Positions 6,656-63,124 of a DNA stretch of 64,000 nucleotides are shown here, piece after piece. Location: positions 896 to 64,895 of the IMG/VR virus record IMGVR_UViG_3300028581_000001. One strand, written 5' to 3'. Each line of letters starts with the position of its first letter. Position 1 is the first letter of the stretch. Source of the DNA: a virus (Duplodnaviria > Caudoviricetes). Both the position numbers and the translations under genes were made by a program. The notes beneath the pieces were generated by a model. That model saw only the letters and a list, made by a program, of their open reading frames with translations. It did no database searches and had not been told where the DNA came from.

Positions 6656-7582
6656 TTATTTAATACGAAATATAAAGTTCTCGTCAATAGTTTGACGTAG
6701 AACAACTGACATGCAATTCAATACATTATTATTCCATCTCTCTAATGAAGTTGCATAGTAACTAGGATCACCTCAACCTCAAGGACTAAGACTTCAAACA
6801 GATTGCTTATGTCAAAGCAAATCATTATTTAAAGTTTTAAAAATCGCACGAACTCAAGATTCAAGAGTAGGAAATGAAACTTTATTTCATCTATCATTGT
6901 TGCCTACATTACCTATATTATTTTTTGTTTTAGTATGTCTTCAGATTGTAGTGTCAGCCCGAGATATACATAACCCAAGTTCTTTCTTTATCTTAAAATC
7001 TTTTTCTGCACGAATCCAGTACTCAACTGGAACCTTAGCATTCAAAGTAATTTCTTCAAAAGAAGAACCATATAATTCAGACCTAGGTTTTGTTTCTCAA
7101 AAACTTGTGTAACCCCATCAATCTTTAAATACTCTTTTAGGAATTATCTTTTTGATGGAGGGTACTGGACTTATAGCCCCTGTTGCAACTCATGAATTAA
7201 TGAAACCAGTAAGTGTAGATCAAGTAGAAACTATATTAAAGTTAATTCTTATTGTATTAGAATTAATCTTATAAAAAGAATCAATAGATTTCACAATTCA
7301 TGTTTGACTATTTCATTTAATTATTGCTTCTATATATATTTGATCAGCAATAACAGATTGTAATTTAGCTTCTAATTCTGTTCTTGTATTTAAAGTAACA
7401 GATAAATCAGCAGAAGCTTGATTAATAATATTAGCTCTTATGTATTCAGGATTGCTAATCCTATTTATATAAGAAGTTATTGTAACAAAAGTATAAACAA
7501 AAACAAAAAGAACAATAGTAATTATAGATTTTATCTTGGCTCATGCGAGTAAGTCTATAATTTTAATTTTAAAATTTTCCAT
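6656..7582 (-). CDS. Membrane-anchored protein with C-terminal lysozyme-like (glucosaminidase-type) domain
   Basis: N-terminal TM helix and coiled coil; C-terminal LCIS(CGG)ADTTIG..KNNIGNVGNND..FPTLESGVRAI..YATS..WNNNV. Confidence 0.55.
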
Positions 7583-7662
7583 GTTTATATAAAAGTTAAA
7601 TAATAAAATATGGAACTTACGATACTATTTTACATTCGTATACTTACGAACTATAAAATAAT

Positions 7663-7708
7663 ATCAAAGGGTTTTATACCCTTGAATTAAATCAATCTTT
7701 GTACACAG
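7663..7708 (-). promoter_or_regulatory. Hairpin element copy B
   Basis: CTGTGTACAAAG-N18-TATAAAA with AAGGG/CCCTT stem. Confidence 0.75.
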
Positions 7709-7861
7709 TTAAAGTGTCTGGAATTTCCAAACTGTTAATAACCAACCTACCATGAGTGCTATAATAATTCAAGACTTATCTCATGTAAAAATACTAAACA
7801 CTAACACAATCAAATCTAATATGATTGCTAATGTTAGTAACCACGATTGTATCTTCTTCAT
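7709..7861 (-). CDS. 50-aa two-TM membrane protein
   Basis: Two hydrophobic stretches. Confidence 0.6.
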
Positions 7862-7900
7862 AAATGAATTAGATTAATAAATAAAATATAAGATAGATCT

Positions 7901-8017
7901 CTATCTTTTCTTAGCAATAAGAATTGCCTGCTTAACAGCATAAACAAATCTTTCTTTACTAGCAGAAATATCTGCTCAATAAAGATATGCTAATACTAAT
8001 AATTTAATTAACTTCAT
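7901..8017 (-). CDS. 38-aa hypothetical peptide
   Basis: ATG to TAG directly after element C. Confidence 0.45.
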
Positions 8018-8061
8018 AACAAATAAGATTAAATAATAAAATACTTACGATACAAAGATAT

Positions 8062-8105
8062 ATCAAGAGGTTTTATACCTCTATTAAATCAATCTTTGTA
8101 CACAG
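8062..8105 (-). promoter_or_regulatory. Hairpin element copy C
   Basis: CTGTGTACAAAG-N16-TATAAAA with AGAGG/CCTCT stem. Confidence 0.75.
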
Positions 8106-8159
8106 AACCATAACAACTAATCCAAGCACAGGAGATATACTCCTGTACTAAATTAATCT

Positions 8160-8318
8160 TTATGATGGATATGCTATAGGTAGATTCCTTTCTATACAAA
8201 ACTTATTAATCAATCTTGCTTCATAAGGTTTAATCTTATCAGCTCACCTTACTCATAACAATTGATGTCTACAGTATGAACCTCTTGCAGCTCATACATC
8301 CTGTCAGTTTATTATCAT
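8160..8318 (-). CDS. Hypothetical protein (52 aa)
   Basis: Open with TGA=Gly; ACAGGAG/CTCCTGT hairpin downstream. Confidence 0.5.
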
Positions 8319-8328
8319 AGATATATTA

Positions 8329-8895
8329 TTAAGAAATATTAATATGATCATCTTCCCATTTTCAATATGAATCAATATACTTAATGGTAGATTTAATGTC
8401 TTTATTTTGAACTGCATTATTAAGTGGAACAAATATATTCTTAAGATCAGCATTCTCTTTTGTTAATCAATTGATAACTTCTTCATTGTGTTCAATGATT
8501 CATTCTATCTCTTGACATATAGTAACTATCTCATTTATTTTCTTATCAGTAAAGAATTCATTATTGATTCTTTCTGTAACAATGTCTGCTTTATACATAG
8601 TATTAATTTGGTTAGTGTTAATTAAAGGTTCGTTATAGTCTCAATCAGCACTACCTCAAAGAGTTTTCCTTGTATCATTAGTCTTATTACCATATATATC
8701 ATAGTCTCTGAATAATGAAAAAGGATAAGATCATGTAGTTCATTTATCATTAGTTATTTCATAGCCATAATCATAAACATATCTAACCTTATAATGTTTA
8801 CCAACAGTAAAATAATATTGATAGTTATCAATTTTATTCTTAATACACATTACATACTTATCTTTCTTATAAGAAGTACGAGTATAATTTCACAT
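8329..8895 (-). CDS. Hypothetical protein (188 aa)
   Basis: Open with TGA=Gly. Confidence 0.7.
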
Positions 8896-8913
8896 ATTAA
8901 TTAAGTTAAAAAA

Positions 8914-8960
8914 TATCAGGGGATTTTATACCCCTGAATTAAATCATTCTTTGTAAACAA
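8914..8960 (-). promoter_or_regulatory. Hairpin element copy D
   Basis: TTGTTTACAAAG-N18-TATAAAAT with TCAGGGG/CCCCTGA stem. Confidence 0.8.
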
Positions 8961-8962
8961 AA

Positions 8963-9247
8963 CTAATCAATAGATGATGTGATTATACTAATGATATCTT
9001 CTTTGCTTCTTTTAGCAGTAAGCCGACATCATCAGTAAGCAAATCAATCTGATTCTTCTAATAAAATATATGAATAACCATCAAAGAAATCAAACCGAAC
9101 ATATGATTTCTTTCAGAACCGAATGTATTCAGAAGTCTTATTAATCTTTGCATCCTTAATCATATGCTTAACAATTTCTGGTAGTGACTTCTTTAATAAT
9201 TCATTATCGAAATCAGCTATCAAAGTAACTTTACGCTTTACTTTCAT
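8963..9247 (-). CDS. Hypothetical protein (94 aa) with three CGG codons
   Basis: EYI(CGG)FG, YV(CGG)FD, GGC(CGG)LT. Confidence 0.65.
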
Positions 9248-9897
9248 GTTTGTTCAAGGTTACATTCTAAATTAATCTCATCAATAGGAGACTGCAAATC
9301 TTGAGGTTTAAAGTTATATCAAGAGCAGTCGGCTATATACATAGCCTGTTCCCATATATCTGCATTGTCAGGAGCATGTTCATATGCTTCTATAACTCAA
9401 CCATCAATCTCTAAATCATCAAGATTACTTTCTCTATTAGAAAATATTTCATACACAGTAGCATTGATAGCTTTCTCTGATGTAGATTCTTCTAATACAA
9501 AATACTTTCAATCTTCATTGTATCATTTGAACTCAAATGATTTATCATTACAATAATAATCTTTGAGTTTAGAATACACAATCTCGCAGAACTCTTGAGC
9601 TTGATACATAACAATTTCATCTTCTGAAATATCATCTTCCATAATCATTTCAACATACTTCATAATAGTAGATTCATTCTGTTCTTCTTCTAAACAAAAT
9701 TGTTCCCATTGTGTCTTAAGATTATTAAGTAGATCTTCATTATCAATTTCATTTCATTGCATATCACAAACTTGAAATTCATCAAAAGATCAACCTCAAT
9801 AATAATAAGTATTGTTATGTGTTACATAACCTACATATCAAGTGAAATCTAATACTAGATCACACTTGTATGTTTTAGTTTCACTTCTTAAAATCAT
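9238..9897 (-). CDS. Acidic hypothetical protein (219 aa)
   Basis: Open with TGA=Gly; D/E-rich. Confidence 0.7.
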
Positions 9898-10397
9898 AAA
9901 TTTTCTGGAAAATTAAAAGATAAATGTGCTCATATAGATATAACAATAATAAATGTTGCTATTGCCCATATGATTAATACTCATTCATATTGACTATCTG
10001 TCATAGTAGTATCATATCTTATTGGTTCTTCAGATGTACTTCAAGTAAAATCAAACATATCTAGTAATCATATTCAATCATTATGATATACATGAACAGT
10101 AGTTATTATTGGAGTATATCATTCATAATCTCTACTACTATAAGATTCAGATGGTTTAGTTTTAGTAGTAGATTTAGAATAACTATTACTAGAACTAGAT
10201 TGTTTAGTATAATTACTAGACTTATATGTATTATTAGTACTAGTAGACTCTACGGCTTTACTCCGAGTAGTATTACTTCTTGTTGCATTTGAAGAGCTAG
10301 ATGTTTCTATTGTAGCAGTTCATCATCATGCTCTTGCATTTACAGTAGCTATTCATATAAATAAAATAAACAGCATTAAAATTAATCTTAACTTCAT
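9888..10397 (-). CDS. Signal peptide, Ser/Thr-rich linker and C-terminal TM (169 aa)
   Basis: MKLRLILMLFILFIGIATVNARAGGG...; C-terminal VLIIWAIATFIIVISIG. Confidence 0.65.
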
Positions 10398-11020
10398 AAT
10401 TGAATTGATTTAAGAAGTAAATTATTCATAACAGTTTCCTTATTAACTTGAGCTTGTTTATTTCTATGCTCAATAATAGAATCTATCTCTGACTTAGCAT
10501 CATCAATACAATCGTCCTTATCAAAATAATCACACATCCATTCATTATCTTCATCTTCTGATTCTTTAATACAAGCCATCCGAACATCTCATCTTAAGTA
10601 TGCATCAAACTCTTTGACTTCTTCTCTAAGATGTTGAATAGCTTTTAATCTTTGAGTAGACTTAATACTTGCTACTCAATATTCCTCACGTAGTTTCTTT
10701 TTAGATACATATATATATCATACCTGACCACTATCCCAAGGACAACTGAATGGTTGAGTTGCTATAGTTACTCAGCTATGTTGATACATATATACTGGTA
10801 GATAAACTACTTCTTTAACTAACAATCATTTTTCTTTTAAATGCATAGCGAAATCATCTGCAAATGAAACTCAATAACATTTCATTCGCTCATCTCATAC
10901 ATCAATATTCCTATGATTATATATCATAGTTCATAAATGATCATAGTTATCTCTAGGATTATCTGGATTATCACAATTCATATAATTAATAATCCAACCT
11001 CTATGTTCCAATGTTTCCAT
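10388..11020 (-). CDS. Conserved phage/MGE hypothetical protein (210 aa)
   Basis: NPR..HLGTM, LPVYMYQHSG, CPWDSGQVGYIY and YLRGDV motifs, recalled as recurrent in phage early regions. Confidence 0.75.
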
Positions 11021-11021
11021 T

Positions 11022-11462
11022 TTAATATTTATTAAGAAGTAAAGTAAGTTTATCAATAGAGTCACTAAGTAAATTAATAGACTCTTGACATCACAATTCT
11101 AATCATCTTAGTAATCATTGCTCGAAACATATCTCTTCAGTAGTAGACATAGCTTCAAAGTTTTCAAGCATGTCTTCTGCATTTTTAAATCACCAATCCT
11201 TAGGATTAGTTCTTCAAAGAATATTCTTACAATAATTTTTCTTATCATTCTTAACAGAAAGTTCTTGTAACAATCTTAAGTCTTCTAATAGTTTAGGCAA
11301 TAAAGTATTTATTAATATCTTATTTGACATAAGAGATCAACATACGAATTGCTCATCACTATCATTCTTCATAGCTTTATCATAAGTATATCAATAATCT
11401 TTAATTGCTTTAAGATCTTCATTGATATTTTCTGATAATGATTTAACAAATTTATTTATCAT
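11022..11462 (-). CDS. Hypothetical protein (146 aa)
   Basis: Open with TGA=Gly. Confidence 0.65.
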
Positions 11463-11700
11463 AGCTCACTTGATTAATAATACAATGATCTGCAGACATG
11501 GTTAATACTGCAGGCTTATCACAATGATTCACTCTTATTGAATCTTTATCTATCATCATCCATTCAATAGAATAATTATCATACTTATTTGATATCCTTT
11601 CACAAAGACATCATTCTTCATCTTGAAGATTAAATTCTTCTTTAGTATTAGAATATAAATCTATCTCTCAAGACTGAAAATTTAAAACAACTGTAATCAT
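11452..11700 (-). CDS. Hypothetical protein (82 aa)
   Basis: Open with TGA=Gly; follows element E. Confidence 0.6.
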
Positions 11701-11723
11701 GATATATGATTGTTAAGAAATAA

Positions 11724-11770
11724 ATACAGGGGATTTTATACCCCTGTAATAATTCAGACTTTGTAAACAA
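11724..11770 (-). promoter_or_regulatory. Hairpin element copy E
   Basis: TTGTTTACAAAG-N18-TATAAAAT with TACAGGGG/CCCCTGTA stem. Confidence 0.8.
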
Positions 11771-11773
11771 ATC

Positions 11774-11929
11774 TTATTCAAATTCTTTAACGAACCTAGA
11801 ATTACAAGAACATCATTCTGTAAAATAAGTTCTAGAATAATATTCTGATTTTTTCCCTGCATTGAATTGCGATACTGGTCTATGGTATCACATAACACGA
11901 GTATATACTTCACATCTTTGTCTCTCCAT
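11774..11929 (-). CDS. Stand-alone class III RNR (NrdD) C-terminal glycyl-radical peptide (51 aa)
   Basis: MERQRCEVYTRVMGYHRPVSQFNAGKKSEYYSR; RVxGY radical loop with Gly encoded by TGA. Confidence 0.85.
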
Positions 11930-11990
11930 ATAATATAAAATTAGTAAATAAATGGTACTAATAATTATATCAAATAAATATAGAAAGCAA

Positions 11991-13397
11991 CTACTTCTTA
12001 GTTTTCGTCTTGACCTTTATTTCTTTTGTTACATCACTAGATTTAGTGGCAACAAAAGGTGTAGCCCTTGCCATTATAACCTGAAGTCAATCACATTCAT
12101 TATCAATTATATCATAGTTCTTTTGACTAATCAATCATGCTTCATCAATTAATATGAAATCTAATCATAATTGTTTGACGAATGCTAATGATAATCTTAT
12201 CTGACATAGTAATCTATTACCTCAAGATAACTCAGTATATGGTTGTCTATTCAGCATTATCTGAAATGATTCAACTACATCTCAATTAGCTTGTGTCTTG
12301 AATAATTCTATATCAAGTCAAAGACCTTTCACTTTATCTTCAAGATCTTTAGTGAATTGTATCTTATACTTCTTAATGAATGTAAGAATTTCTTTATCAT
12401 TAAGTTCACCTAAAGCTTTGAGTTGTGCTTCCTTAATACCAAGTTCTCTCTTAGCAGATTGATATTCATTAACCATATCTTTATCCACTTGATTAGATTG
12501 TCTAAGTATCATCTGTAAGAATCATGCCTTCTGATCTATAGTCATAGGATTCAAAGGTTCAGGAACAATGTTAGTAGGTAACAATGGAATTGATTCAAGA
12601 TCAGCTAACTGTCTTTTTAATTCTTTACCTTTAGCATTGATTCATTCTACAACTTTAGTATATTTATCTGAAGATAACTCAGCTCAACAAGCAGGACAAT
12701 TCTTTTTAACATTCTTAAACTCTTCACGAAGATCTTCTATCTTTGTTTTAAGATTAGTAATGTTAATCTGATTCCTATTGTTAGTAGCAACAGCTTCATT
12801 GTTTGCTAACTGAATAGCTATACGATTACCATTGTATTTACTTTCGTACTCTCTATACTTAGATTCTATCTCTGAAGAATTATCTTCTATTGATACAGGA
12901 TTCTTTTCAAACTTAGTAACTATAGATTTGAATCTAATTATATCATCTAAGATAATATCTTCTTTACCTTTATTCTCTTTCAACCTAGCATTCAATTCTT
13001 TCTCCAGAGTTGGTGTCCATCATGGAACATTATCTTTCATGTATCATTCAAAGTCTACACCTAACAGTTTAACTAATGTTAATCTTTGTTCAGGTGTTGA
13101 CAAATTAAAGAATTCTCATGGTAGTATATATTTAATTAATGCATTAGGTTCTTGATCTAATCATATCCATAATGCTTTACTTAACATATATACTTTATCT
13201 GGAGTATGAATCTTAGCAGATCATGACGGAAGAGTTCTAAGTCAAGGATACTTCTTAGAATACAAACTCAATAATGTATTAAGTATTGTTGACTTACCAT
13301 ATCCATTTGGTTCTTCTATTAGATTAATTCATGGTCAGAATTCTCTTTCCAATTTTAATCAGAAGTCTGGATAGTTTATCTCTATCTTATTAAACAT
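11991..13397 (-). CDS. Rad50/SbcC-like ATPase (468 aa)
   Basis: Walker A EPNGYGKST, coiled coil with CPACG zinc hook, LSGG signature, FILIDEAG Walker B. Confidence 0.85.
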
Positions 13398-13415
13398 AGT
13401 TCATAAGGGTTAGTA

Positions 13416-13685
13416 TTAAAATGGAATATCTTCTGTCTCTGGTAGTAACAGATTAGCAATATCTTTCCTAGTCATCTCGAATACATCTGATCTCCATTTT
13501 CATTGCCATACAAACAATACGAGATCTTCTTCAACAGTAGCTCTAAGTGCATTTTGTTTATCATCAGCTTTATTATAATAAGTAGTAAATGCATCTCTAC
13601 TTACTATTATCAAAGGATTAACAGGATTATTAAATACCTCAAGTGTAAATCACTTATCAGGTATTGACCTAAATATCTTGTCCAT
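13416..13685 (-). CDS. Hypothetical protein (89 aa)
   Basis: WQGKWRSDVF; C-terminal EDIPF. Confidence 0.7.
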
Positions 13686-13703
13686 AATAAATTGGGTTAA
13701 AGA

Positions 13704-13750
13704 ATACAAGAGGTTTTATACCTCTTTAGTATTTCAGTCTTTGTAAACAG
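13704..13750 (-). promoter_or_regulatory. Hairpin element copy F
   Basis: CTGTTTACAAAG-N18-TATAAAA with AAGAGG/CCTCTT stem; overlaps the 3' end of the upstream gene. Confidence 0.8.
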
Positions 13751-14039
13751 ACAAGTCTATTCACTTAGATTTAAATATCATTCATATAACTAATAGATCA
13801 GGTAGAATAATATCTAACTTGATCCAGTAAGTTCAATGTGTTCAGTTATATCCATAACTGCTTCACTCATTGGAGATAGCACAATCAATCTCTACACCAT
13901 TATCTATTGTTATAGTCAATGGTTTATCAATAAACTTCCTTGCATCAAATGATTCAGGAACATTGAATGTAGCAGATATGTTTCAATCTGCTATACTCTT
14001 TGTGCTAATACCTTTTCATGGAATAAACTCTATGTTCAT
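13716..14039 (-). CDS. Hypothetical protein (107 aa)
   Basis: Open with TGA=Gly; its TAA lies in the loop of element F. Confidence 0.6.
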
Positions 14040-14185
14040 AGTTCTATTATTATTTTAGTAGATTTCATATCATCCCATAATATTGGACGAACATACTTAT
14101 GAACATATTTTCTTAATAAGTTTTGTCTTCCAGTTAATAATCTTATTAACTTAGAAGTTCTAGGTCAATGTACATATATTACCAT
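14030..14185 (-). CDS. Hypothetical protein (51 aa)
   Basis: Open with TGA=Gly. Confidence 0.45.
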
Positions 14186-14188
14186 ATA

Positions 14189-14467
14189 TTAATTATTATC
14201 GCTTTCAAATAAATCTTTTATAAATTGATTACATGCTTCAACAGAAAATCAATATTGACTATCAAAATAATCTTCTATGTATTCCATTATTTCATATAAT
14301 TCTCAACATTCTCATATATGATTACGAATAAAAGATTCTATTTCATTAGTAGTTTTAACAAATGTATTAGCATTTTCTAAAGAATTATTACTATCTTCAT
14401 AATATATTGTATATCAATCTTTTTCTTTAGTTAAATATAATTTAATAAATTCAAATTCTTTAATCAT
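14189..14467 (-). CDS. Acidic hypothetical protein (92 aa)
   Basis: Open with TGA=Gly. Confidence 0.6.
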
Positions 14468-14468
14468 A

Positions 14469-15371
14469 TTAACATTGTTTATATAAATAAAAGTTCTCAC
14501 CATTTACTTTGACTTCATCTTCATCTCAGTTCCGTCTATTAAGAAAATGTCATCTTCAGTCAGCTGTAATAGCATCTTCAACGAATTCATCAAAATCATC
14601 TATTAATCTAATGACTGCTGCATTTCATCATTCACATTTTTCTTGTATAGCTTTAAGTATATCATAAGATCAATCATCATGATCTAATGCTTTACTATGA
14701 TCTATAATAAAATCTGGATTAAAAGCCCAAGCAGATTCTTTTATTTCATCAGCACATTCTTTATCTGCTTCTTTATCTGTGCATACTAGATATTCATTTC
14801 ATTCTATATAGAATATATTATCTTTATATCATTTATCTATGTAACTTAATCATGATGTTGACACATCACAATTAATACACATAGCTAAAAGCTTGTTAAC
14901 TCATATTCAAAGTTCTTCAGCTTTAACTAATATAAAAGATTCATTTTTCATATCTTCTGTAATTTTTACAGGATAATTCTCTGCATCTTCTTGTTCTATA
15001 TTGGAACATAATGCTTCGATAGTCTTATCAAAATCACTAGGTAGATCATTGATAGTCCAACCATGTCCATATATATAAGGTTTATCTTTATATATATCAA
15101 TATATGCTGTACAGAATCTTGGATCAAATGAATCTACTTTACGTTGTATCTCTTTAGTTCCTGCATTCATACCATTCAAATGATATTCTTGCCATACACT
15201 TAATAGTTCCTCTTGATATTCTCATAGAGGTTCTATACTATCCTGACATTGACCACTATCTCACGACATAGTAAATTCAGGATATCAATTCCTGTAAGTA
15301 ATTTCAGCTTTGATATTCCATAGCTTTCAATTCTTATCATGGAATTTAACTTTTCGAATTAGTTCTTTCAT
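14469..15371 (-). CDS. Conserved phage hypothetical protein, probably two domains (300 aa)
   Basis: GQC..W..YHLNGMNAGT N-domain; YLVCTDKEAD..WAFN..ADGRGHFLNR(CGG)NGDE C-domain. Confidence 0.75.
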
Positions 15372-15483
15372 TTTAATTGTGGATTATTTAAATAAAGTAT
15401 TTCTTTTTGTATAGCAATAACTCTCTCACTTAATGTTGCCCATTCCTGCAATAATTTATTAATCTAATCTTGATTATTCATAG

Positions 15484-17898
15484 TTAATGTTTAACATATA
15501 AATTTTCAAATGTAGTACAACGAGAAAGTCATACATACAAAAGTTCTTTTGACATTCACTTAATATATGTTAAGCATACATTATCTAGTGAAAGTCATTG
15601 ACTATTATGTGAAACAAATCATTGACATACAAATGAATGATCTCATTCAATTTCTATATCATATGTATTTCTAATTCATATATTTTCTATAGAAACTATT
15701 TTATCATAATAGAAATTATTATCTAATGTTTTATTTAATACTTTTAATATAAATCATTTTGATCTAGCAAATGAATCTAAATATATACATTGTTTATAAG
15801 AAAGATTTTTATATCTTAAAATAGCTTTAAGTTTTTTATCTTTATTATATCACAATCATTTAATACATTCTTTAAATTCATCTATTATTTTATTTCTATT
15901 AATAACAAAATCAATACTAGATTTTCATTTAGATATAAAATTAATTAATCTATCTTGTTTATATCAAACATTAAATCATAAATATTTATTGAATAACATA
16001 ACATTTATTCAAGTTATATTTAATACATATGCTTGATTATGTTTATCTGAATATTTATTTAATTTATTAATATAACTTACTATTCAGAAATCTAATAATA
16101 AAAGTTTAATCTTATTAATTAAATCTTTTGAAATAGATACATATCTAATATTTCAATTCTTAGAAATAGATCAATCAGTATCAAATAATCATTTAAGTAC
16201 ATTAGATTTTATTAATCAATTAGATTTGAAAATTCAATCTGGTATTGTTTTATCTTTTCATGTACAATAATCTAATCATATTGTATATAATAAATCTCTA
16301 AACATTTTAGAAGTAAATATAATTGACTTCGCTTTATTATCTTTTTTTCATTTTAATAAATAATTAATTCAAAAATTAGATAATAATTCACAACTACTAT
16401 TTAATATATGTTCATCCATAGAAGTTATATCAATTCTTCAATCATCTTTATAATTATAAGATCAATCTCAAATTAAAACTCAAATGAAATATGCGAAATT
16501 ACTATCTATATATTTTGTTATATATATATCTTTAGATCTATTTCATAAATCTGGTTTGTGTAATTCAATATCATTTCAATCTAAATTAATAGTTCTATTC
16601 ATTATAAGATAATCTCATATATTTAATTTTCAAGATTCAATATATTCGTTTGTATGATTTAATACTGATAATAATCTATGTTCTTTAGTAGTAATAATTT
16701 CTCATCATGATTGTGTAGTTATTTTAATAACTTCTTTTTCTCATGTAAATTCTTTTCATATTACTTTCTTAAAAGAAAATCAAGTATCAACAGTTTGTCA
16801 TAGTTGTATATCTTTAATTGCAAATAATCAATCAGTTGTTTTTACTAATTGATTTTCTTCAATACATTTATGGATTGTCATAGCCCATGAAAGTTTCAAT
16901 GGTATCTGATTATAAGTACCAATAGTTATTTCTGTAGTTCAATCATACTGAACTTCTTTCCATTCTTCATAACCTATCTCAAAGTTACAATCGAATCTAT
17001 CAGAATGAATCTCAACTGTATTGGAATTACATTTAACTACAGTTCAAAGATCACCATTGACTAATCAATTCTGTAAGTTCTTAGTAACCATAATTCTACA
17101 TCATTCTTTTAAATATAGTTCTTCTGGTGTAATACAGTTCTTAGAATTGAACTTACCATATATATATCATTTGTAAATATATTCTTTTGCTTTAACAGTT
17201 TCAAATCTTTTCTTATTAAAAGCATCTACCATATTATTAAATGGCATTAAGTGAACACTATGCTCATCTCAATATCATCTATTGAAATCATATATTGAAC
17301 CCATTTTATTATCTCTAATATTATTAAGTAGTTCAACAAAAGTATTATCTTTTTGTCTACGTACTTTAATTAGATTAAGTTCTTTGAATCAACTATAACA
17401 AAATGCATGATCGAATGTCAGCTTTCAATACTTAGTAACAAGATCTTCTATCTCATTCTTATCCTGTTCTGTGAAACTACCATACACAGGTGGCAATTGA
17501 TTTGGATCTCATACTAATATCATCTGTATTCAACCAAAAGCTTTCTTATTTCATCTCATTTTCTGAAGTAAGTAATTAATATAATCCAGATAGTCTGGTC
17601 CAACCATTGAGATTTCATCAATTACTATTGTATCTATCTCTGGCCAATCAACACTCTGTTGTTTGATGGGCTTATTATGTAAGTAGTTACCGAACATCTT
17701 AAATGTAGAATGAATAGTAGCTCATCATATATTTATTGCTGCAATTCAAGTAGGTGCAACTACTATTACATTCTTTCATTTAGCTCTACTTTGTTTAATG
17801 AATTCCTGAGTTGTATATGTTTTACCAGTTCATGCTTTCCCTGTAAGAAAACAATTAACTCAACTTAACATATGTTCAAGTGCTTTATCTTGTGTCAT
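15484..17898 (-). CDS. Pif1/RecD-like SF1B helicase containing an intein
   Basis: FLTGKAGTGKT, APTGIAA, IDEISM, GDPNQLPP, QIPLKLSWAMTIHK|SQG, YVGLSR. Confidence 0.92.
15604..16866 (-). mobile_element. Intein (421 aa) with LAGLIDADG homing endonuclease
   Basis: Starts CIEENQLV, ends YDIEIEGDHSFVCQGFVSHN before Ser+1; GVLIGDGS and GLFDTDGS motifs. Confidence 0.92.
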
Positions 17899-17906
17899 AA
17901 TGTTAT

Positions 17907-18434
17907 TTAGGTTAAATCAATTAAATCAAATTCTTTACTTGTATAAACATCTTTACTAGATACTAATTCAAATACTTGTTTTAAATCTAGATTTGGATTA
18001 AGTAAATGCATTCAATCAACATAATAAGATCAACTACCAACTGAACAGAAGTCAGCTATCAATGAAACTTCAGTAGGTATAAATCTATATCATTGTTCTT
18101 TAATAATGAAAGCTGTATCTTTCTTATAATGAATAAAGATAATAATAAATTCAAAATCAGTTGGACATATTTGTTTTAGTCTTGATTGTATCTCATATAA
18201 CTTCTCATCATGAGTAAACTCAGGATTAGAAATTATCTTACCTATTGATGTCTTAAGCATTCAAGGTATTATCTTAGGTCCTGATGTTACTATATATATA
18301 GCTTCATCATAGTCTGTAAGTTCTCTAAATATTTTTAGAATCTTTACATTAGTATCATCAATTCAAACATGTCATCATGTTCATCTTTTATCGGCAGCTA
18401 TATACTTGCCTTTCTTATATATCCCTGTTGTCAT
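17907..18434 (-). CDS. Ntn-hydrolase (HslV/proteasome beta-like) protein
   Basis: MTT N-terminus, IAADKRGTGG, SVGSGS. Confidence 0.7.
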
Positions 18435-18996
18435 TGTTAAGCAATGTTAGAAAGTAATCTTTTAATTCAATAAACAATTCTAAGTATCAAGTAGTAACAA
18501 CTTCAAATTTGTAATCGTTCTTATCAAGATATAAGATTCCAGATTTAAGTCAGTTCAAATATTCATATCATCATCATTGTATGAAATATTTTTTACTCTT
18601 AGTCTTAGGTTTATAGTCTATGTTCATATCAGTATCAATAATCGATCCTATGTGTGCCATAAGATCAATGGTTCATTGTATATCTTTTTTAAAGTTCACC
18701 TCTTGTCCAATGATTGTTACATCATAAAGAGTGTGGAACTTCATAATCTGTTTATGTACTGTGTCAGATTCTCAATTAAAAAAGTCCTCAGATTCTTTAT
18801 GTGTTATTGTTCATCTTATGCGAGCTGTCTCTAAAGCACCTGCATGATTCCTTTTAACATATTCAAATCAAGGATCTTGTATTAATTTAAGAATAGTAGT
18901 TACTGATGGCAATCAATCTTGATACCTATCCCAATTACTAGGTAAGGTATCAAGTAGTGAATAACCATTGTCTTCACACCATTGCTTTAATCTCAT
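18415..18996 (-). CDS. PD-(D/E)XK exonuclease
   Basis: PSVTTIL, RGT..H, GTIDL, IDYK, QxxxY. Confidence 0.8.
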
Positions 18997-18998
18997 TG

Positions 18999-20063: not shown

Positions 20064-20143
20064 AAAAATGTAAGTTAATAAATAAAATACTTAACTCTAT
20101 TAAGAGCTAACGAATGCCATCAATAGATAGCAAACGTCAGATA

Positions 20144-20518: not shown

Positions 20519-20535
20519 ATAAATATAGTTAAATA

Positions 20536-20581: not shown

Positions 20582-20583
20582 AA

Positions 20584-20820: not shown

Positions 20821-20832
20821 AGTTTTATATAG

Positions 20833-21763: not shown

Positions 21764-21765
21764 TG

Positions 21766-23874: not shown

Positions 23875-23880
23875 AGTATT

Positions 23881-49300: not shown

Positions 49301-52300
49301 GCTTCTTAATTATAGGATTATTCTTTTTAGCGAACTCAGCAGTCATTGTATCGTTTATAATATCTTCCATTTCTTTTAAAATGAAATTCTCATCAACAAC
49401 ATTTAATGATTGACATTTACTATTAAATTTTTGAAATATATATTCTAATACTTCTTTATATACTTTTGATCATCATAATGCTATTGCTTTATTAAATATA
49501 TCTATTTTTTCTAATAATCATTTAGAATTTCTTAAATCAGAAATTAGTCTTGTAATTCATTTTAAATCTTCTGTTGTTAATTGTCAGAATTTTCATTTCA
49601 TTTCTATATCTTTTTCAATTGATTTGGTTAAATCTTCAACTTTTAAATCTATTGAATCTTTAAGTTTTGGTTTTAATTGTGAAAATGTTGCAAAATTATC
49701 TGAAGTATTTTTAATATAATCAACTGTAAAATTATTTATAATTGAATCTGTATAATTTGTTTTAAATTTATATTTTTTTAAATTTCATAACAATTCTTTT
49801 TTTAATCACTTTTCAATTAAAATTAATTCTTCAATCTTTTTTTGTAAGTTTTCTTTAATTATTTTATCTGGAATAGCTTTCTTTTGTTCTTTTAAAGTAT
49901 TAATTCAATTTTGATTTTTCTTAATCAAATTATTAATATTTATTACATATCTCTTCCATTCTTTTTCTACTTGTGGTTCTAATGTTTTTGCTAAAGAAGA
50001 TTTAAATACTTTATCTCATAATAGAGTTTTAGATAATGGTTCTATTAATTTAGGACTAAGTAATAAATCTGAGAATGCTTTTATGTATTGATCATCCATT
50101 TTTGGATCTACTCAAATCTTTTTTATAATTGCATCTATTAATGGTTTATGTTCTGCATATTTATATGCAATATTATAAATCATTGGCTTAACTAATATTC
50201 ATATATTTTCATTTGCATTTACAAAAATATTATAAATAAAATTATTTAGAACTTCAAATTCTTTTGTATCTGGTTTTATATCTAATATATGTCTAAGTGT
50301 AGCAGTAATATAATCTTTATCTAATACTCAATCAGTAAACATTCAAGTTACTTTAGAACTTGCATGTATTATCCTAGAATTTTTTATTCAAGTTTCTAGA
50401 TCAAATACTCAATCTTTTTCTCAATATTCATAAATAGATCTCATTAATGCTCATACACTCTTAGCATAATTAGAAACTTTATAAATCATTTTTCATTCTT
50501 GAACTATTTTTCAAGAAAGCATATCTTCAAACTCTGATTGTTCAGATAATTCTTTACCTGCTGTTAAATACATTATGAAATTTCTTCATCATTTTTTATC
50601 TTCAATATATCAATATGTAAGATTTAATAATCATTCTTCTCTTGAAAAATAATTAATAAGATCTTCTCATGGTACTACAAAATTATTATCTTTAGCAGCT
50701 TGAAACTCTTTCATTTCATTTATGAAATTTACTTTTCAAAAATTATTTTCTCAATAAATTTCATCTACAACTCATTTAATTAATTTTCATATTTCATTCA
50801 TTAATCAAATCTGTTTATCAATTGGAACTTTACTAACAAATCACATAACTTGAGATCAAGATTTTTTATCTAATGTTCAATTCTTTCAAACTATTGTTCT
50901 AATTGTTTGTTGTATATTATTTTCAGGTACTCAATATGCTTCTCATAATTTAGTTATTGTTTGTTTTCTTGATATCATTACGTTCTTTATTTTCTCTACA
51001 AATAAATCTGTTCATTTATAAATATCAAATGCTGTTCATTTTTTAAATTTATGTCATTCAATAATCATATCATCTTTAATTTTAACTTGTCAGTTTTTAA
51101 TTAAATCAACATAATTTTTTTTAAAATCTTCTATATCATTAAACTTAATATTAATAACTCTTCAAGTATCTCATGGAAAACTAACTTGTATAGATCTTAC
51201 ATATTCTACATTAGAATATGCATCCTGTATTGCTAGAGTATTTTCTCTTATAATATCTAGATATTCTGTTGCTTCATCTTTACTAGGTGCTAATTTAATT
51301 TGTTGTATAGCTTGTTTAATTTCTATAACTTTAGTTTCATAATATGAATCATTTTTTGGTGGTGTAACCTTTCTATCATAAGTTCATTTTCATGTTGCAA
51401 CATTTAATGCATCATTTAAATATTTATCTTGCAATAATTTATTTACTTCATATTCTTTACTTCATGATTTTAAATCATATCATTTTAATACAGCATCATC
51501 CATTGCATCAAATTGTCTTCATGTAATTCATGTAACATCTTCCAGATGTAATCATATTCATTCTGCAGTTACTATTTCTTTTAGTCTTCATTCTTCCATT
51601 CATAGAATATTTTTAGACATAAAGTTAAATAGTTCAGCAGGTTTATCAAAAATTTCTTTTACTTTTGCAGGTGAAAAAACTGTATATGCAATTTCTTTTC
51701 ATTTCTCCATTAATTTAATTGCACTATTTCTATCTAGTTTAATATTATTTTGTGTGTCTAGAGCCTTAACAAAATCATCTACTGCAGCTCAGTCTTCCTT
51801 ATAAATATAATTATACATTATACTATTCTTTGCTTTTTGTGCAGTTTCATAACCAAGTGATCAAACCTGAATTATTCATTTTCCTGCTCAATATATTGCT
51901 GTATCAAATACCAATCATGTTATCATATTAAAGTTTTCTGATACATCTGATGGTGCTTGCATCATTGTATTATCTATAATTGCATCTCATGGTGCTCATT
52001 GTAATAAACTATTAGTAGCTCATTTCATTCATTTAGTTATTTTAGAATCCATTACTTTTGGAAATACTTTTAATATGCTTTCTCAAAATCAAATATTTGT
52101 TTTAATTAAAAGTCATATTCATTTATCTGCTACTAATGCTGCTCATTTTGTAATTCACTTTGTTACTAATCAGGTTCATGCTGTTGCTGTCGCTAATGAT
52201 AATAATGCATCTGGATTATATGCTATTACCGATAGAAACTTATCTAGGTTTCATTTGTCTGCAGTTATTAAGCTTCTATATTCTTGTCTAATATAATGTG

Positions 52301-53708
52301 GAACTTCATCTTTATCATTATCATAAACCTTATCAAAAATTCTTTCAACTGTTGCAGCAGAATATGAATATGCATCCATTAATGATTTAAAAGTATCAAT
52401 AGGTCAAGATAGAAATCTATCTTTCATTTGTTTTAAATTTGTTGCTTGAGATATAGATGTTATTAATGATTCTTTAGATCTTAATTTATCTTTATCTTCT
52501 TCGGATAAAGATTGATATGCCTGCTTAATTGCTTTCTGTCTAACTTCTTCATCATTTTCTTTATTATAAGATGGATCATTTTTTAATATAGCATATCTTC
52601 TAACCATTTCAAGATCCATATTATATCATACATCTGATATTTCTTTAAACTTTGCAGCAATTTTTTCATTATCTGGAAGATCTTCCATTCATAAAAGTTC
52701 TAGATAATATTGTTTATCAGTTGTCGCCTTTTCTACAATCTGATCTTTAAGATTCATAAAAGTTGTTCATCATATTCATACAATATTTTTTGCATCCTTA
52801 GCAAAATCTTCATCAAACTTTTCTGACATCTTATTATTTAATTCTCATATAAGAGTAAAAGTATCATTTCATTTTACTAATGCATCTTGTTTTATTTGTA
52901 TTTCATTATAAACTTCTTCTCATGTTTTTTCTCAATTTGCTTTAATAGAATTATTTAAATAATTCTTAAGCTCATTTTGTTTTTCAGTATATTCTGTTTG
53001 ATATCATCAAATGGATTCTTGTAATGTTGCAGCTTGACTTAATATATTTGATTGTGCAAATGGATCTAATAAATCTAATTGCATTTTTTGAAAATTAGAA
53101 AAATCTTCTTGATCAGTAATTGTTGTAATTCATTTTTCTGATAGATATTGTTTTTCAACTTGTTTACTAAAATCTCTATATTCTGTAAATCTAGGATCTA
53201 CACTTGATATATCATGAATTTTTTTCTGTCTATCTCTTAATAAACTTTCATATTCTTTAACTTTAGCTTCAAAATCTTTTTGAACTATTCATTCATTTAA
53301 AGAATTTTTAAGTCATGTTCAATTTAATACATCACTTCATTTACTAATTCACATTCAAGTTAAACCTTTTACTAAATCCCATGCCATTCATAATCATCAT
53401 AGATTTTTAAATCTATTTGAAAGTGATCTATCTTCATCTGATATCTTAGGCTTTTCTCAATATTTATCTTGAAGATCATAATATTCTATTGGATTAACAA
53501 TTCAATCCCATAATCATGCAATTCACTTTTGTTCAATTTTATTTTCAACTCATTCAATTGCATCCTTTCCCCAGTTAATAACTGAAGAAGCAGTATCTGC
53601 TACTGCATCTACTGCTTGTGTTCATAGCTCAACTGCTCAACTAGCTACATTTGAAATTCATTCTCATACAGCTTCAGCTGCATTTATAATACCTTCTAGT
53701 GGTGTCAT
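40323..53708 (-). CDS. Giant (4461 aa) putative virion-packaged two-barrel RNA polymerase polyprotein
   Basis: One frame (track ORFs at 44019, 47376 and 52404 are in frame); QDGTSFIS, FKDHF..GKTLF, YRYPVP and GDNDGD (46383-46400). Confidence 0.75.
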
Positions 53709-54557: not shown

Positions 54558-56264
54558 TTATATAAATCATTGAACAGAATTTTTAGTTAATTTTATGTCT
54601 CAAGTTGAAAAATCTATTTTAACAAAGAACTCTTGTCATTTCTTTCAGAATTTATTCTTTGCTATTGAAAGTTTTATTTCATTTGAATCCTCATATAAAA
54701 TAAATATCACATCACTAGATTGAAATAAATCTCAAGATCATTTCAACATAACTTTATTTCATTCTTTCTCTCTAGAGTCGTTGTTAACTTGTGATAGACT
54801 GAAGACTACACAGTTATTTCTAATGGCCATCTTCTGTATTTCTCCTGCAAGAGTTGACATCTTCTCGTAAGATGATACTGCAGGACAAGTAAATCATTGT
54901 ATGAAGTCTATAAATACTATATCAAACTTTTCCATTTCAGTTGTTTTAATAATTCAATCTAGTGTAGAAATATTATCATACAGATATAAATTTTTAAAAT
55001 CATCTCTGTTAATCTTGATCTCTCATTTAAGAATTGAATTGAAATGTTTTTTGTAATATGCCTTAGCAATATATCAAAGAAGCAATCATGTGTCAACTTC
55101 TATTGAGAAGTATCAAACTTTTTTTCCTGCTTTAACAAAATGATTTACATATTCATAACTGAATTGTGATTTTCATGTGTTAGAGAATCATCCGATAGTA
55201 TAAACCTTTCATTCAATAATTCATTGAGTTTCTTTATCAAGTAATTCAAATGGGCCTTTCTGTCACATTTGTCATCTAGCTTGAAAAATACTTTTAATAC
55301 TTTCAAACTTTGCAAATGCAAGATCAATGTTCTTTGGTTCTTTGGTTCTATCTTGCTCAATACATTCTAGAACTTCTGCTCATATTCAACTAGATACAAT
55401 TAGTTCATTGATATCTTTAACTTCATATGGTGCAAGATCGAATACAGAAAACTTAATGTCTTTAAGATTTTCTAATATAGCTTTACCTGCTTCATCATTA
55501 TCAGGTATAAGAATAATCTCATATCACTTTTTATAGAATGCTCTCACTACATCTTGTCATTCATTTGCTGACTTAAGGCCAATAACATTTACTCAAAATT
55601 GAGCAAGTGATAAGAAATCAAACATTCATTCTACTACATAAACCTTTTTAACTTCCTTATTCATTGTAGTTAGAAAGCATCACTTAGAGTTTGTTCACTT
55701 TTCTATCATGAATTTTTTCTCTGTAATGGATCTATTCTGAATTGATATTATTCAATTTACATCATATAATGAGCAAGAAACGTATCATTGATTATTTTTG
55801 ATATAAGTATCGACTTTCGTATAATCTATTCACCTACCCCTACAGAATTCAATCTGGTCATCATTTAAATTTGGAAGTGAATTCCATTTATCAAAAACTT
55901 TTTTCTTGACATCTAAAGGAATTTCCATATTATGTTGTTTGTTAGTTAGTAAATTAGTTTGAAGATCCCTTTTGGTCAGGGGATCTTTTTGTTCATCTTG
56001 AAGATTGAACGTGTCCTTAAACCGAATTACTGCTTCTCATTTGTCTAATCCATTGTACTTCATGATGAATGATAGTCTGTCTCAGAATGCTCTCTTACCA
56101 GAGAAATCAGATATAATATTAAGATTTGTATCTGCTTTCCATCAATCAGTTGGTTGTCAATGCTCGAATAAATTTAAAGTGTGTCCTGATACAGAGTATC
56201 TAATTCATACTGATCTCAGTATGTCTTCTAGTTTTATAGAATTGATTTGTTCAAAAATATTCAT
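54558..56264 (-). CDS. DNA primase-helicase (TOPRIM + DnaB-like), 568 aa
   Basis: VVEGMFD, IPDNDEAG, GGFSNTGKS, FIDFIQ, LSQVN, GSGDLFQSSD, IAKNK. Confidence 0.9.
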
Positions 56265-56289
56265 TAGTTTTCTCAAATAAAAAAATAAA

Positions 56290-59287: not shown

Positions 59288-59610
59288 TCTAAAGTATCTA
59301 GATATATTTTGAGTAGAATACAATAGTTTGCTAAGTCAACTAATGAATCTGTAATGGACTCATCTTTTACTTGATTAGCAACTCCTTGAAATTTTCGCTG
59401 TAGCAGGTTTGTAATTCTACTTACCTTATCAGACTGCCTTACAAGTAATCAAGTGGCTACATCCGTAATTCCTAGTACCTCTACGAGCTCAAAATTTTTA
59501 AATGCTACGTCTCAAGAATAGTCTGCATTCTTTTTAACTGCAGTTTCATACATATCATTTGTAATATCTCTAAAGATTTTCAACATTTCTGTTGATTGTA
59601 AACTGTTCAT
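59284..59610 (-). CDS. DUF1599 / nucleotide modification associated domain 1-like protein
   Basis: KNADYSGD..FKNF..VRQSDKVSRI..DESITDSLVDLANY. Confidence 0.75.
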
Positions 59611-59652
59611 AGTTCATAGTTAATAGTAAACTGTAAATTTTTACAGGATGGC

Positions 59653-61146
59653 TTAGAAATCATTCTGAAGTCTTTTAATTTGCATGTCAGCAGTCTTAAA
59701 TTGATTCTCCTGTATTATAACATATCATGGTTCTGATCTGTATCAATTAGTTTTATCGTAAAGACCTTGTCATCAAAGTCAAGTAGTCTTGAACCATATG
59801 CACTTTGGATACTCTTTAAAGTTAAGATGATGTTTATCTCAACTAAAAATAATATTATATCTGGTAAGATCTCAATATAGAACCAGAATCTTCTCTGGTG
59901 ATAACTTATCGAAACTACCATCACCATGTGCTATTATATAATGTATATTTCCTATATCCATTATAGAAATTGTATCACGAAGATACTGAATTTCAATTTC
60001 AGATTTAGAAAGACCACGTTTAATCATTTCATATATCACAAGTCATCATGTCTTTTGTACATCCATGTCCTTTGCTTGTGTCATCCTATCATGATTTCAT
60101 GGGATTCCTGTAAAGTATACCATCTTTCCTGCTTTCTTGATGGCCAATAAGAATTTTTCTAGAATAACTACAATATTCATCATCAAATCAAATCCATATC
60201 ACCATTCCTGCTCTGTACCATAGGCTAATTGTCATGGATGCATTCAATCTTGTGTAAGAGTTTCAGCAAGATCTCCAAAACAATTTATATAAATTAGATC
60301 TTCCTCTGATTTTATGATATCATGTAGTATATAGTCTAGTCTTTCTATGATTTTCTTAGTTCATATCTTACCTATGTGTAGGTCTGATAGGTTATACTGC
60401 TTTGATTCATAGTTCTTAGGTGGTTCTATCTTGAAATCTATCTCTAATGGCTTATGATTATCTATATATTTCTGTACGAATTCTAGAAACGCCTGATTGC
60501 TAGATACAACTTGTAGTGCACTCTTAACTTTAGCTTCATGTGCCTTTTTTAATTTCTGTTTATATTTATTTGAGATATGATCTGAAGTCATCTCATCAAT
60601 AGTTCAGTCAAGTTCTTCCTCTCATAAAGAATTAAGTGTAATATCTGACACTACATTTGATCACTTGTTAAGATTCAGTTGATTTTTTAATACTCACCAT
60701 GCCTTTCAACTCAATCAATACTTATCCATTATGTTCTGTCCAGTAAGATTATGACCATGATGTGCATAGTCTTTGTAGATTGCATCTATTGTTGATAGTT
60801 TGAATGGTATTGGCTCGAAGTAATCCTCACCTGTAACTGATTCTGTTACTTTAATTCTAAGAATAACATAAGTTTCTCACTTAACTTTCTTAGTTTCTGG
60901 TAATTCATCTGTGAATAACTCATTCATTCTAGTTATAGAATCTTTTACCTCTGAAATATTTTCTTTTATAAGATCAACTTTCTTTTCAAGTTGTTTTATT
61001 ATCTGATATATCTGAGGTGATTCTAATGTTATCTTAAATTTTTCTTTTACTTTTTGTTTAATGATTTTATTTCTTTCTTGATTTGAGATTTCTCATAAAG
61101 AATAATACTGCTCTTTGATATAATCTCTGATTGACTTATTGATCAT
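59653..61146 (-). CDS. Calcineurin-like metallophosphoesterase with N-terminal extension (497 aa)
   Basis: SDLHIG, GDLAE, GNHDR, AHGD, GDKHH. Confidence 0.85.
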
Positions 61147-61178
61147 ATGTGTTGTTAGTTAAAAAAAACTAGGCTATG

Positions 61179-62293
61179 CTAGTTTTCAAGAAATAAATTA
61201 CTACTGAGTATTTTGCGTACTCAGCCTTTAACAGAAATAATAACATCAATTACTTGTCATCTATCTTTAGCGATAAGTAATTGTTTATATTTATCTGGAT
61301 ATGTTGAAAAATTTATAATAAAATTTTCATTATCATCATGGTACATTACTCTCATAGAATGATAAGTTTAATTTTATTTTGGATTTCGTTTACTTTTTTA
61401 TTAAATTCTGCCCTTAGTTTTTTGTTAGTAGGAGATCTAAATTTAAATCTTAGCTCCTCTAATTCATTGTTTAGCTCTAATAAGTTTTTGGTCATTATTA
61501 ATTAGGTTAATAATATTATCTTGTATAATTCTTATTTGCTTTTCAATTTGTTCATTTGTAACATGATCCATTTTAATATCAAATCTAAGATCTTCTATTG
61601 AATTGAATATATGTACTAGAGTCATAATAATAAAGTTATTTATATCTTTGATTTAATTCTTGAATTAAATATGTAATAACAAATGATTTGTTTTTAATAG
61701 TGTCAGTATTCAATACATAACACAAAGATAATACTAAAATTATCGTATAAAGCAAGAATATATTCGTTAAAATTTTCATATTATTTATTAAGTTTAGTGA
61801 TACATTTATTATAATATTCCGAAGTTATACATCAGTTAATCAAATCTCTAATTAATAACTTTCTAAATAACATTTCATTCTCCATGTCTATTAAAGCTTT
61901 ATTAGTTTTATTTTCAAGCTCAATATATTCTAATTCTTTTTGGTTCATACTACTGATGTTAAGATTCTATTATATTCTCTCATAACTGAAACCATAAGCT
62001 TTACATATTCTTCTTGATTTAAACTTCAATCTCTAAGTCTATTTCTTAATTGAAGTCTTTCAGCTTCAAATAATCTAGAAGCTTCATCATAATATTGCAT
62101 AGTAAATAAGTTAAGATCTTTGTTTATATTTTTTTCATTCCATTATCTGTACAAGTTTGCATTGAAATCTTTCAATACACATTAAGCATCATTGAGATTC
62201 AATAAGATCTCATATAGTATAAAACTTCTTTCAAGTCTCTTTATGTATTATAGAGTAGCCATTAAATGTTGGCTCAAGTTTTTTACACATCAT
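61179..62293 (-). other. Cluster of about 7 short hypothetical ORFs (e.g. 61179-61355, 61346-61495, 61781-61948)
   Basis: Tightly packed 40-60 codon ORFs; some boundaries uncertain. Confidence 0.45.
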
Positions 62294-62304
62294 ATTATTT
62301 TAAG

Positions 62305-62793
62305 TTATAATATAGTTATTGCTCATGAATCTCATTCGTTTGTATAAAAATTTACATCTCAAATTAATCATAAAGCATAATAGTCAAAATTATTAGAGAA
62401 AACTCTAGTAGAATATTTTCAATATTCCCACTTGAATATATCTCAACTTTGCACTGTTGCATTTATATCTAATGATTGTCATACACTATTTCAATTATTT
62501 AAATTATTAGTAATTCACCAAGACTGTATTAAAGTAGCTCATCTATATTGTCTTATTAAACTACATAGAGGTCAAGGATATGTAACTGGTCAAGATATAT
62601 TAGTATATCAATCAGTATAAACATAAAATGTCATTCTTATTTCTCAAGTAGTATTTATTTGTGCCACATTAATAAGTCATCATCAAGTTCGTGGATTAGT
62701 TAATCAAGACTTAGTTCATATCAACAATGTTCATGGAGTTATTGGTGTCGAATTATTAGATGATGTCATCATCATTGCTATTGGGAATGTCAT
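62305..62793 (-). CDS. Gly-rich beta protein, probably virion-associated (162 aa)
   Basis: MTFPIAMMM..; open with many TGA codons. Confidence 0.6.
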
Positions 62794-62800
62794 ATTTAAT

Positions 62801-63124
62801 TTATCATTTAAATAAAGGGTGTATATAGTTGATTGCAGTTACTATAACTCATACAGTTGCAACAGAAGTTCATATTATCCGAGCTGCTAACTTAAGAGAA
62901 TCTTTTTTAACAAATGCTTTCTCTGCATAAGTTCTCCGTTCTTTACTATCTGCATCATGTTTTATCTGCCAGTCTGTAATAAGTTTAGAAATCTTTTCTA
63001 TTTGGTGATCTTCATCTATCATGTGTCTATCTAATTTTGCATCAATTTTTTCAAATCATTTGTTTAAAAATTCCATAGTTATAGATAGTTCAGTAATAAG
63101 TTCTGTTGGTGGCTTTTTAGTCAT
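62801..63124 (-). CDS. Coiled coil plus C-terminal TM protein (XhlA/holin-associated type)
   Basis: LAA(CGG)IIGTSVATVGVIVTAINYI. Confidence 0.6.

Follow-up and report, generated by a model that had tools for sequence, protein, structure and literature searches.

Probable reading of CGG as tryptophan, together with TGA as glycine, in a complete or nearly complete phage genome

Reassignment of CGG or CGA to tryptophan (Trp) has already been described for bacteria (PMC8629427, PMC13092985). Absconditabacteria (SR1) read UGA as glycine (Gly) and both CGA and CGG as Trp (Shulgina and Eddy 2021, PMC8629427), and the code-25 phages of Absconditabacteria and Gracilibacteria read TGA as Gly, matching their code-25 hosts (10.1101/2021.08.26.457843; PMC10746230). 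The object of the present work is the codon CGG in a lake-water phage of the Caudoviricetes (IMG/VR record IMGVR_UViG_3300028581_000001). The window, i.e., the whole stretch of DNA that was analysed (64,000 nucleotides), corresponds to bases 896-64895 of one contig 64,895 bp long, with a GC content of 26.5%. From the codon comparisons given below, this phage very probably uses translation table 25 (TGA as Gly) with CGG read as Trp, the codons CGA, CGT, CGC, AGA and AGG staying arginine (Arg). The alignments show TGA at Gly positions and CGG, not CGA, at Trp or aromatic positions.

The phage and Absconditabacteria are alike in UGA as Gly and CGG as Trp, and also in low GC, AGA as main Arg codon, TGG as main Trp codon and the rarity of CGG. 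They differ in CGA, which is Trp in these bacteria (PMC8629427) whereas in the phage it is found at basic or polar columns and is rarer than CGG. The proposed code is thus not the published Absconditabacteria code, because CGA behaves here as Arg. The original prediction, made from the sequence alone, had linked the phage to the Absconditabacterales code: the link stands for CGG as Trp with TGA as Gly and fails for CGA. The best match is given by some Gracilibacteria (UGA as Gly) for which Codetta predicts that CGG is Trp; these are, however, bacteria and not phages, and the main text of PMC8629427 gives no CGA reading for them. Some Bacillota (Anaerococcus; RFN20/Onthovivens) have the same split, i.e., CGG as Trp and CGA as Arg, but keep UGA as a stop (PMC8629427, PMC13092985). 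Two baboon-gut phage assemblies with AGG as Met likewise follow a sense-codon change of their host without a transfer RNA (tRNA) of their own; the codon, the amino acid and the host clade are other ones, and no stop codon is changed (PMC8629427). As to the code-25 phages, a second reassignment is not described in the text of the preprint of Borges et al. (10.1101/2021.08.26.457843; 'CGG' has 0 occurrences) nor in that of Liu et al. (mBio 2023, PMC10746230; 0 occurrences of 'CGG' and of 'CGA'). Among the search listings and paper texts consulted, none describes a phage that reads CGG as Trp.

CGG codons and their counterparts in homologues

Open reading frames (ORFs) of at least 150 amino acids (aa) number 0 in the window under table 11 and 43 under table 25, almost all on the minus strand. 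When 1347 TGA codons of the window were aligned to three relatives (listed below), the partner codon was TGA in 370 cases, GGN in 394 and TGG in 1. To judge by these partners, TGA is Gly throughout the window. The first 127 bp of the contig (bases 1-127) recur as a direct repeat at 64769-64895; thus the contig represents the whole phage genome or nearly so, either assembled as a circle or terminally redundant. Among the recognisable genes are those for the large terminase, the primase-helicase, the HNH endonuclease, the M15/VanY endolysin and the 4461-aa protein.

Codons were counted in a set of 84 ORFs read under table 25, and sites named by one coordinate (e.g., 38137) are designated by the highest coordinate of the minus-strand CGG triplet. 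CGG occurs in frame 18 times, in 13 genes, all on the minus strand. The other counts are TGG 127, AGA 462, AGG 44, CGT 42, CGC 9 and CGA 13; minus-strand genes alone contain 119 TGG, 18 CGG and 6 CGA, so that CGG, if read as Trp, would make up ~13% (18/137) of their Trp codons. The CGG codons cited in the original prediction (at 23650, 56022, 14532, 10580, 6959 and 62879, and three in gene 8963-9247) are all in frame on the minus strand, and TGG is indeed still the main Trp codon.

Relatives were found in IMG/VR using terminase and capsid alignments, a scan with the terminase alone giving no match there; many genes are shared with the window.

G003: 60,427 bp, 30% GC, terminase identity 53%
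G004 (the IMG/VR record behind contig L032): 67,194 bp, 35% GC, terminase identity 63%
G005: 64,028 bp, 27% GC, terminase identity 36%

A comparison with homologues is possible at 9 of the 18 CGG sites, and at 8 of these 9 the homologues have Trp or another aromatic residue.

23650-23652, minus strand: CGG at residue 75 of the M15/VanY-type endolysin (gene 23473-23874); TGA-recoded homologues have mostly TGG
38135-38137, minus strand: CGG at residue 556 of the large terminase (gene 37730-39802); TGG in G004, G003 and G005
39623-39625, minus strand: CGG at residue 60 of the large terminase; TAT in G004 and G005, ATA in G003
56022-56024, minus strand: CGG at residue 85 of the primase-helicase (gene 54558-56276); TGG in G004, G003 and G005
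42855-42857, minus strand: CGG at residue 3618 of the 4461-aa protein (gene 40323-53708); TGG in G004, with 14/14 flanking residues identical
10580-10582, minus strand: CGG at residue 162 of the phrog_6186 protein (gene 10388-11065); aromatic column, TAT in G005
14532-14534, minus strand: CGG at residue 280 of the phrog_15770 protein (gene 14469-15371); aromatic column, TAT in G003
6959-6961, minus strand: CGG at residue 208 of a 308-aa protein (gene 6656-7582); variable column
22758-22760, minus strand: CGG at residue 49 of the HNH endonuclease (gene 22383-22904); uninformative, F in I-HmuI (1u3e), weak match

Six of these sites can be aligned to the syntenic relatives, i.e., 38137, 56024, 42857, 39625, 14534 (G003 only) and 10582 (G005 only). 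The 14 partner codons are TGG 7, TAT 4, ATA 1, GCT 1 and ATG 1; none is an Arg or lysine (Lys) codon. Three controls were taken from the window: (i) AGA, AGG, CGT and CGC (n=639) have TGG as partner once and an Arg or Lys codon 317 times; (ii) TGG (n=119) has TGG 74 times and a tyrosine (Tyr) codon 7 times; (iii) Tyr codons (n=1115) have TGG 17 times. Fisher tests for TGG as partner, pooled so that a site may count up to three times (once per relative), yield p = 2.8e-12 when CGG is compared with Arg codons, 2.4e-9 with Tyr codons and 0.40 with TGG. With the closest relative alone the values are 3/4 for CGG and 1/255 for Arg codons (p = 5.6e-6). CGG therefore behaves like TGG, and unlike an Arg or a Tyr codon. 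At site 38137, 11 of the 14 residues on the flanks are identical in G004 and as many in G003. At site 42857, G003 has GCT and G005 has ATG, both within weakly conserved alignments.

Two columns are strongly aromatic in standard-code homologues. At site 10582 (119 homologues) the residues are Y 83, W 15, F 8, V 8, C 3, L 1, gap 1 and R 0; at site 14534 (36 homologues) they are Y 33, W 2, gap 1 and R 0. PHROG and Pfam profile scores were also compared with R or W placed at the CGG position. These scores are informative for two genes, W being favoured over R by +3.0 bits at site 10582 and by +1.6 bits at site 14534, and are elsewhere mixed or silent: no profile match covers the CGG sites of the primase and of the 4461-aa protein, and for six CGG-bearing proteins no family is matched at all. 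Solved structures gave weak matches only, and nothing was matched by the N-terminus of the primase. Among GenBank phages searched with tblastn, the terminase had no match, and the matches of the primase start after residue 85.

In the endolysin, nine homologues of a large protein collection have W at the CGG column. A comparison at the DNA level was needed, because the collection had translated those contigs with TGA as W. It was made on 15 TGA-recoded loci (L001, L002, L011-L022 and L024) obtained by scans of IMG/VR and of a metagenome collection. The codons at the column are TGG 10, CGA 4 and CGG 1, with no AGA, AGG, CGT or CGC. The two columns of conserved Arg in this alignment are occupied by AGA, AGG or CGT, with CGA in L001 and L002 only, and the window has AGA at both; the original prediction had also said that conserved Arg positions use AGA or CGT, and that the endolysin carries the motif VT-W-T-x-x-S-x-H, which is seen in the homologues. 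Among standard-code homologues, the column is W in a Chania metagenome-assembled genome, Y in Carboxylicivirga and N in two others. A scan of a genome collection with the endolysin alignment gave distant standard-code homologues only, with no Absconditabacteria or Gracilibacteria genome and no handle on the host clade.

It must be noticed that the same protein collection holds proteins of the window (P0001, P0017, P0137 and P0174) that are 85-96% identical to its table-25 reading; in P0001, P0017 and P0137, W stands at window TGA positions.

The column of site 6961 is variable: in 149 homologues it is K 29, F 25, W 24, Q 17, Y 16, R 10, L 10 and others. Twelve loci with available DNA have TGG 3, CGA 3, AAA 2, CGG 1, TAT 1, TTT 1, CAG 1 and AGA 0, i.e., an apparent Arg is always CGG or CGA. 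In the same gene, residue 283 (TGG in the window) belongs to a near-invariant Trp column in which 22 of the 149 database homologues have 'R'; in the one case checked in DNA, L054, the codon is CGA. Probably, many public protein records from recoded contigs carry a false Arg at Trp positions.

The CGG codons are not a sequencing artefact, since four other lake-water sequencing runs carry the same phage with no listed difference at a CGG codon. Over positions 6600-26599 of the window, a near-identical phage is present in contigs of at least nine lake-water runs (nine coded studies), of which three runs may be the source sample. In the contigs of the four other runs, the differences listed over this interval are one base (17453) and a few small indels, with 12 further indels beyond those listed; no TGG/CGG polymorphism is found among the listed differences.

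The remaining CGG codons are in frame in genes without usable homologues:

9023-9025, 9095-9097 and 9119-9121, minus strand: three CGG in the 94-aa gene 8963-9247, which matches no Pfam or PHROG family and lacks homologues in the relatives
10263-10265, minus strand: CGG in a low-complexity context of the Ser/Thr-rich protein 9888-10397; no homologue found
20168-20170 and 20231-20233, minus strand: two CGG in gene 20144-20626; no family, no homologue
27618-27620, minus strand: CGG in the 670-aa protein 26793-28805; no family, no homologue
62879-62881 and 62936-62938, minus strand: two CGG in gene 62801-63181; no family, no homologue

A sensitive search of six homologue-less proteins and two CGA-bearing ones against the ORFs of G003, G004, G005 and 12 recoded loci gave weak HNH paralogues only.

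The reading of CGA and the codes of related phages

Two CGA sites of the window can be compared directly:

15354-15356, minus strand: CGA at residue 6 of gene 14469-15371; Arg-like, AAA in G003
10886-10888, minus strand: CGA at residue 60 of gene 10388-11065; polar or basic column, AAA in G005

At the former, the 16 full-length homologues with an aligned N-terminus have R 13, K 2 and W 1; at the latter, the 119 homologues have H 58, Q 25, R 7, K 5, N 5, T 5, E 4, D 3, V 3, Y 2, M 1, S 1 and W 0. When the TGG codons of the relatives aligned to the window are considered (151 in total), 74 face TGG, 7 face CGG and 0 face CGA, and in the window CGA is not seen to be interchangeable with TGG or CGG at Trp columns. 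The CGA:CGG ratio in minus-strand genes is 6:18, against values of 3.4 to 66 for the 12 other NNA:NNG pairs counted. With CGA and CGG synonymous, AT pressure would be expected to favour CGA, which is indeed the commoner in L012-L024 and L054. From these comparisons we conclude that CGA would still be Arg in the window, and hold this less firmly than CGG as Trp, since only two sites are direct. The original prediction had called CGA ambiguous: its view of CGG is retained, and CGA is now assigned to Arg by the two sites, the absence of TGG partners and the 6:18 ratio.

The relatives do not all share this code. CGG of G004 faces AGA, CAA, ACA, CAT and AAT at the five sites aligned to the window and CAA, CTT, AGA and AAA at the four sites aligned to G003, i.e., no aromatic codon; by its partners, this sister phage reads CGG as an Arg-like codon, unlike the window. 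CGA of G004 has Arg or Lys partner codons in 59 of 78 cases and, on that count, is read as Arg. G005, with 15 CGG and 5 CGA, probably shares the code of the window: the relatives have aromatic residues at two of its CGG sites, but one faces AGG. In G003, where CGG is rare, CGA occupies polar or basic positions.

A TGA-recoded metagenome contig of 19,067 bp, L011, shares four genes with the window, i.e., 59653-61146 (48% identity), 11777-12016 (80%), 23881-25515 (40%) and the endolysin (69%). The partner in the window is AAA for its only aligned CGG and AGA for its aligned CGA; L011 may read both codons as Arg. Among TGA-recoded contigs, one endolysin family is found under three codes or more: L001 and L002 (which share with the window only the endolysin and one small gene) have CGA as Arg, CGA and CGG stand at Trp columns in L012-L024, and the window has CGG at the Trp column with AGA at the Arg columns. 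These codon columns show that recoded contigs reading, as it appears, CGA/CGG as Trp exist. For the clade of ~60-67 kb TGA-as-Gly phages, we lean slightly to the view that sister phages give a sense codon different meanings, CGG being Trp in the window and probably in G005, and Arg-like in G004.

Alternative readings of CGG and CGA

Several observations weigh against CGG as Trp with CGA as Arg. (i) Half of the CGG sites (9/18) have no usable homologue. (ii) Some comparisons give a basic residue or favour it: at site 38137 a distant terminase, that of L004 (27% identity), has AAA and the PHROG terminase profiles slightly favour R (W minus R of -0.6 and -1.3 bits); K is common in the column of site 6961; a solved T5-like endolysin has K at the CGG column (weak structure match), and the PHROG endolysin profiles are mixed (0, +3.9, -1.9 and -2.2 bits); the HNH site aligns to R and L in two G004 paralogues (weak matches), with PHROG values of W minus R from -0.8 to +2.8 bits over 7 families. 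(iii) The closest available relative has Tyr (TAT) at 3 of the 6 aligned CGG sites, against 7/119 for ordinary TGG. (iv) CGA as Arg rests on two sites and on codon-usage arguments.

The basic residues of L004, of the solved endolysin and of one HNH paralogue are what would be expected if CGG were an ordinary Arg codon (plain table 25) and Trp-to-Arg substitutions had accumulated, TGG to CGG being a single transition. It is then difficult to account for the absence of Arg and Lys partners in the syntenic relatives (0/14 against 317/639 for true Arg codons) and for that of Arg among the 119 and 36 homologues at sites 10582 and 14534; moreover, the apparent Arg found at the Trp column of recoded endolysins is CGG or CGA and never the dominant AGA. 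Arg or Lys is thus far from standing at most CGG columns, and the plain Arg reading is strongly disfavoured, with hardly any probability left to it. The Tyr partners raise another question, i.e., whether CGG is read as Tyr, or ambiguously as Trp and Arg by competing tRNA(CCG) and tRNA(UCG), or as Trp and Tyr. Two homologue columns are indeed mostly Y, and wobble onto CGG is to be expected of a U34 tRNA(UCG) that reads CGA (PMC8629427). The excess of Tyr partners can be explained either by Trp located where Tyr and Trp interchange or by partly ambiguous decoding. Real Tyr codons, however, have TGG as partner in 17 of 1115 cases, whereas CGG has it in 7 of 14 (p = 2.4e-9), the closest homologues have TGG at four sites (23652, 38137, 56024 and 42857), and a reassignment of CGG to Tyr was not found in the literature consulted on genetic codes. 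A Tyr or ambiguous reading is quite improbable.

It could also be that the phage follows the full Absconditabacteria code, the few CGA being Trp at tolerant positions. Such a code is the published one (PMC8629427), CGA is found at Trp columns in other TGA-recoded contigs (L012, L016, L018, L024 and L054), W is found in one homologue (P0155) where gene 14469-15371 has CGA, and two CGA sites only could be compared. Both of these sites are nevertheless basic or polar in homologues, with AAA in the relatives, and no TGG of the relatives faces CGA against 7 that face CGG. In addition, all aromatic-type sites (8/8) carry CGG, for which the probability is ~7e-6 at an A:G ratio of 3.4:1. The full Absconditabacteria code is improbable for this phage, and CGG alone as Trp is the reading that we retain.

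Decoding, host and meaning

As the original prediction had stated, the phage has no tRNA gene: ARAGORN finds 0 in the window and in the whole contig, and Rfam gives no match at gathering scores. In a relaxed Rfam scan of positions 1-6700, a hairpin at 4127-4240 of the window gave weak sub-threshold hits in families of leaders and small RNAs (best E = 0.014); this region looks like a bidirectional terminator and not like a known RNA family. There are tRNA genes in two relatives. G004 has, on the minus strand of its contig (31466-32911), genes for Cys(GCA), Met(CAT) and a tRNA(UCA), the last called selenocysteine (SeC) by ARAGORN. This tRNA(UCA) has G1:C72, C2:G71, G3:C70 and U73, which are glycine elements according to PMC8629427; thus G004 brings its own UGA-as-Gly tRNA, because the tRNA shows the glycine identity pattern. 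G003 has genes for Met and Pro(TGG), and none was found in G005.

In the absence of a phage tRNA gene, host tRNAs must be used. The phage would rely on the host translation apparatus, with a Gly-charged tRNA(UCA) and a Trp-charged tRNA(CCG), the anticodon CCG being one base off the normal Trp anticodon CCA. In such a host, single T-to-C transitions from TGG would be silent, and the CGG codons probably arose in this way. The host is probably a UGA-as-Gly bacterium of the Gracilibacteria/Absconditabacteria group in which CGG, and not CGA, has been reassigned. It does not fit a typical Absconditabacterales genome; it is better described as a UGA-as-Gly lineage reading only CGG as Trp, because CGA behaves as Arg. 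For candidate phyla radiation (CPR) bacteria, it has been argued that tRNA(UCG) reads both CGA and CGG, which was suggested as the reason why both codons changed together in Absconditabacteria (PMC8629427). A split host therefore needs a tRNA(UCG) with restricted wobble, or dominance of the cognate tRNA(CCG).

If CGG is Trp, tables 4, 11 and 25 all mistranslate this phage. Every CGG-encoded Trp then appears as Arg in the protein collection searched, i.e., ~1 Trp in 8 is wrong, including conserved positions of the terminase, the primase, the endolysin and the 4461-aa protein. The phage would track a sense-codon change of its host without carrying a tRNA for it. Its exact code, with CGG only and not CGA, narrows the possible hosts more than TGA as Gly does, and points to a lineage with split CGA/CGG decoding. 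A natural UGA-as-Gly host lineage would then keep CGA as Arg while reading CGG as Trp, a split that has been argued to be hard to reach where tRNA(UCG) reads CGA (Shulgina and Eddy, PMC8629427). Since G004 reads CGG differently, differences of code may be barriers to, or markers of, host switching among the phages of these uncultured bacteria. If sister genomes do differ in this way, sense-codon reassignment would be a movable host-range character for phages.

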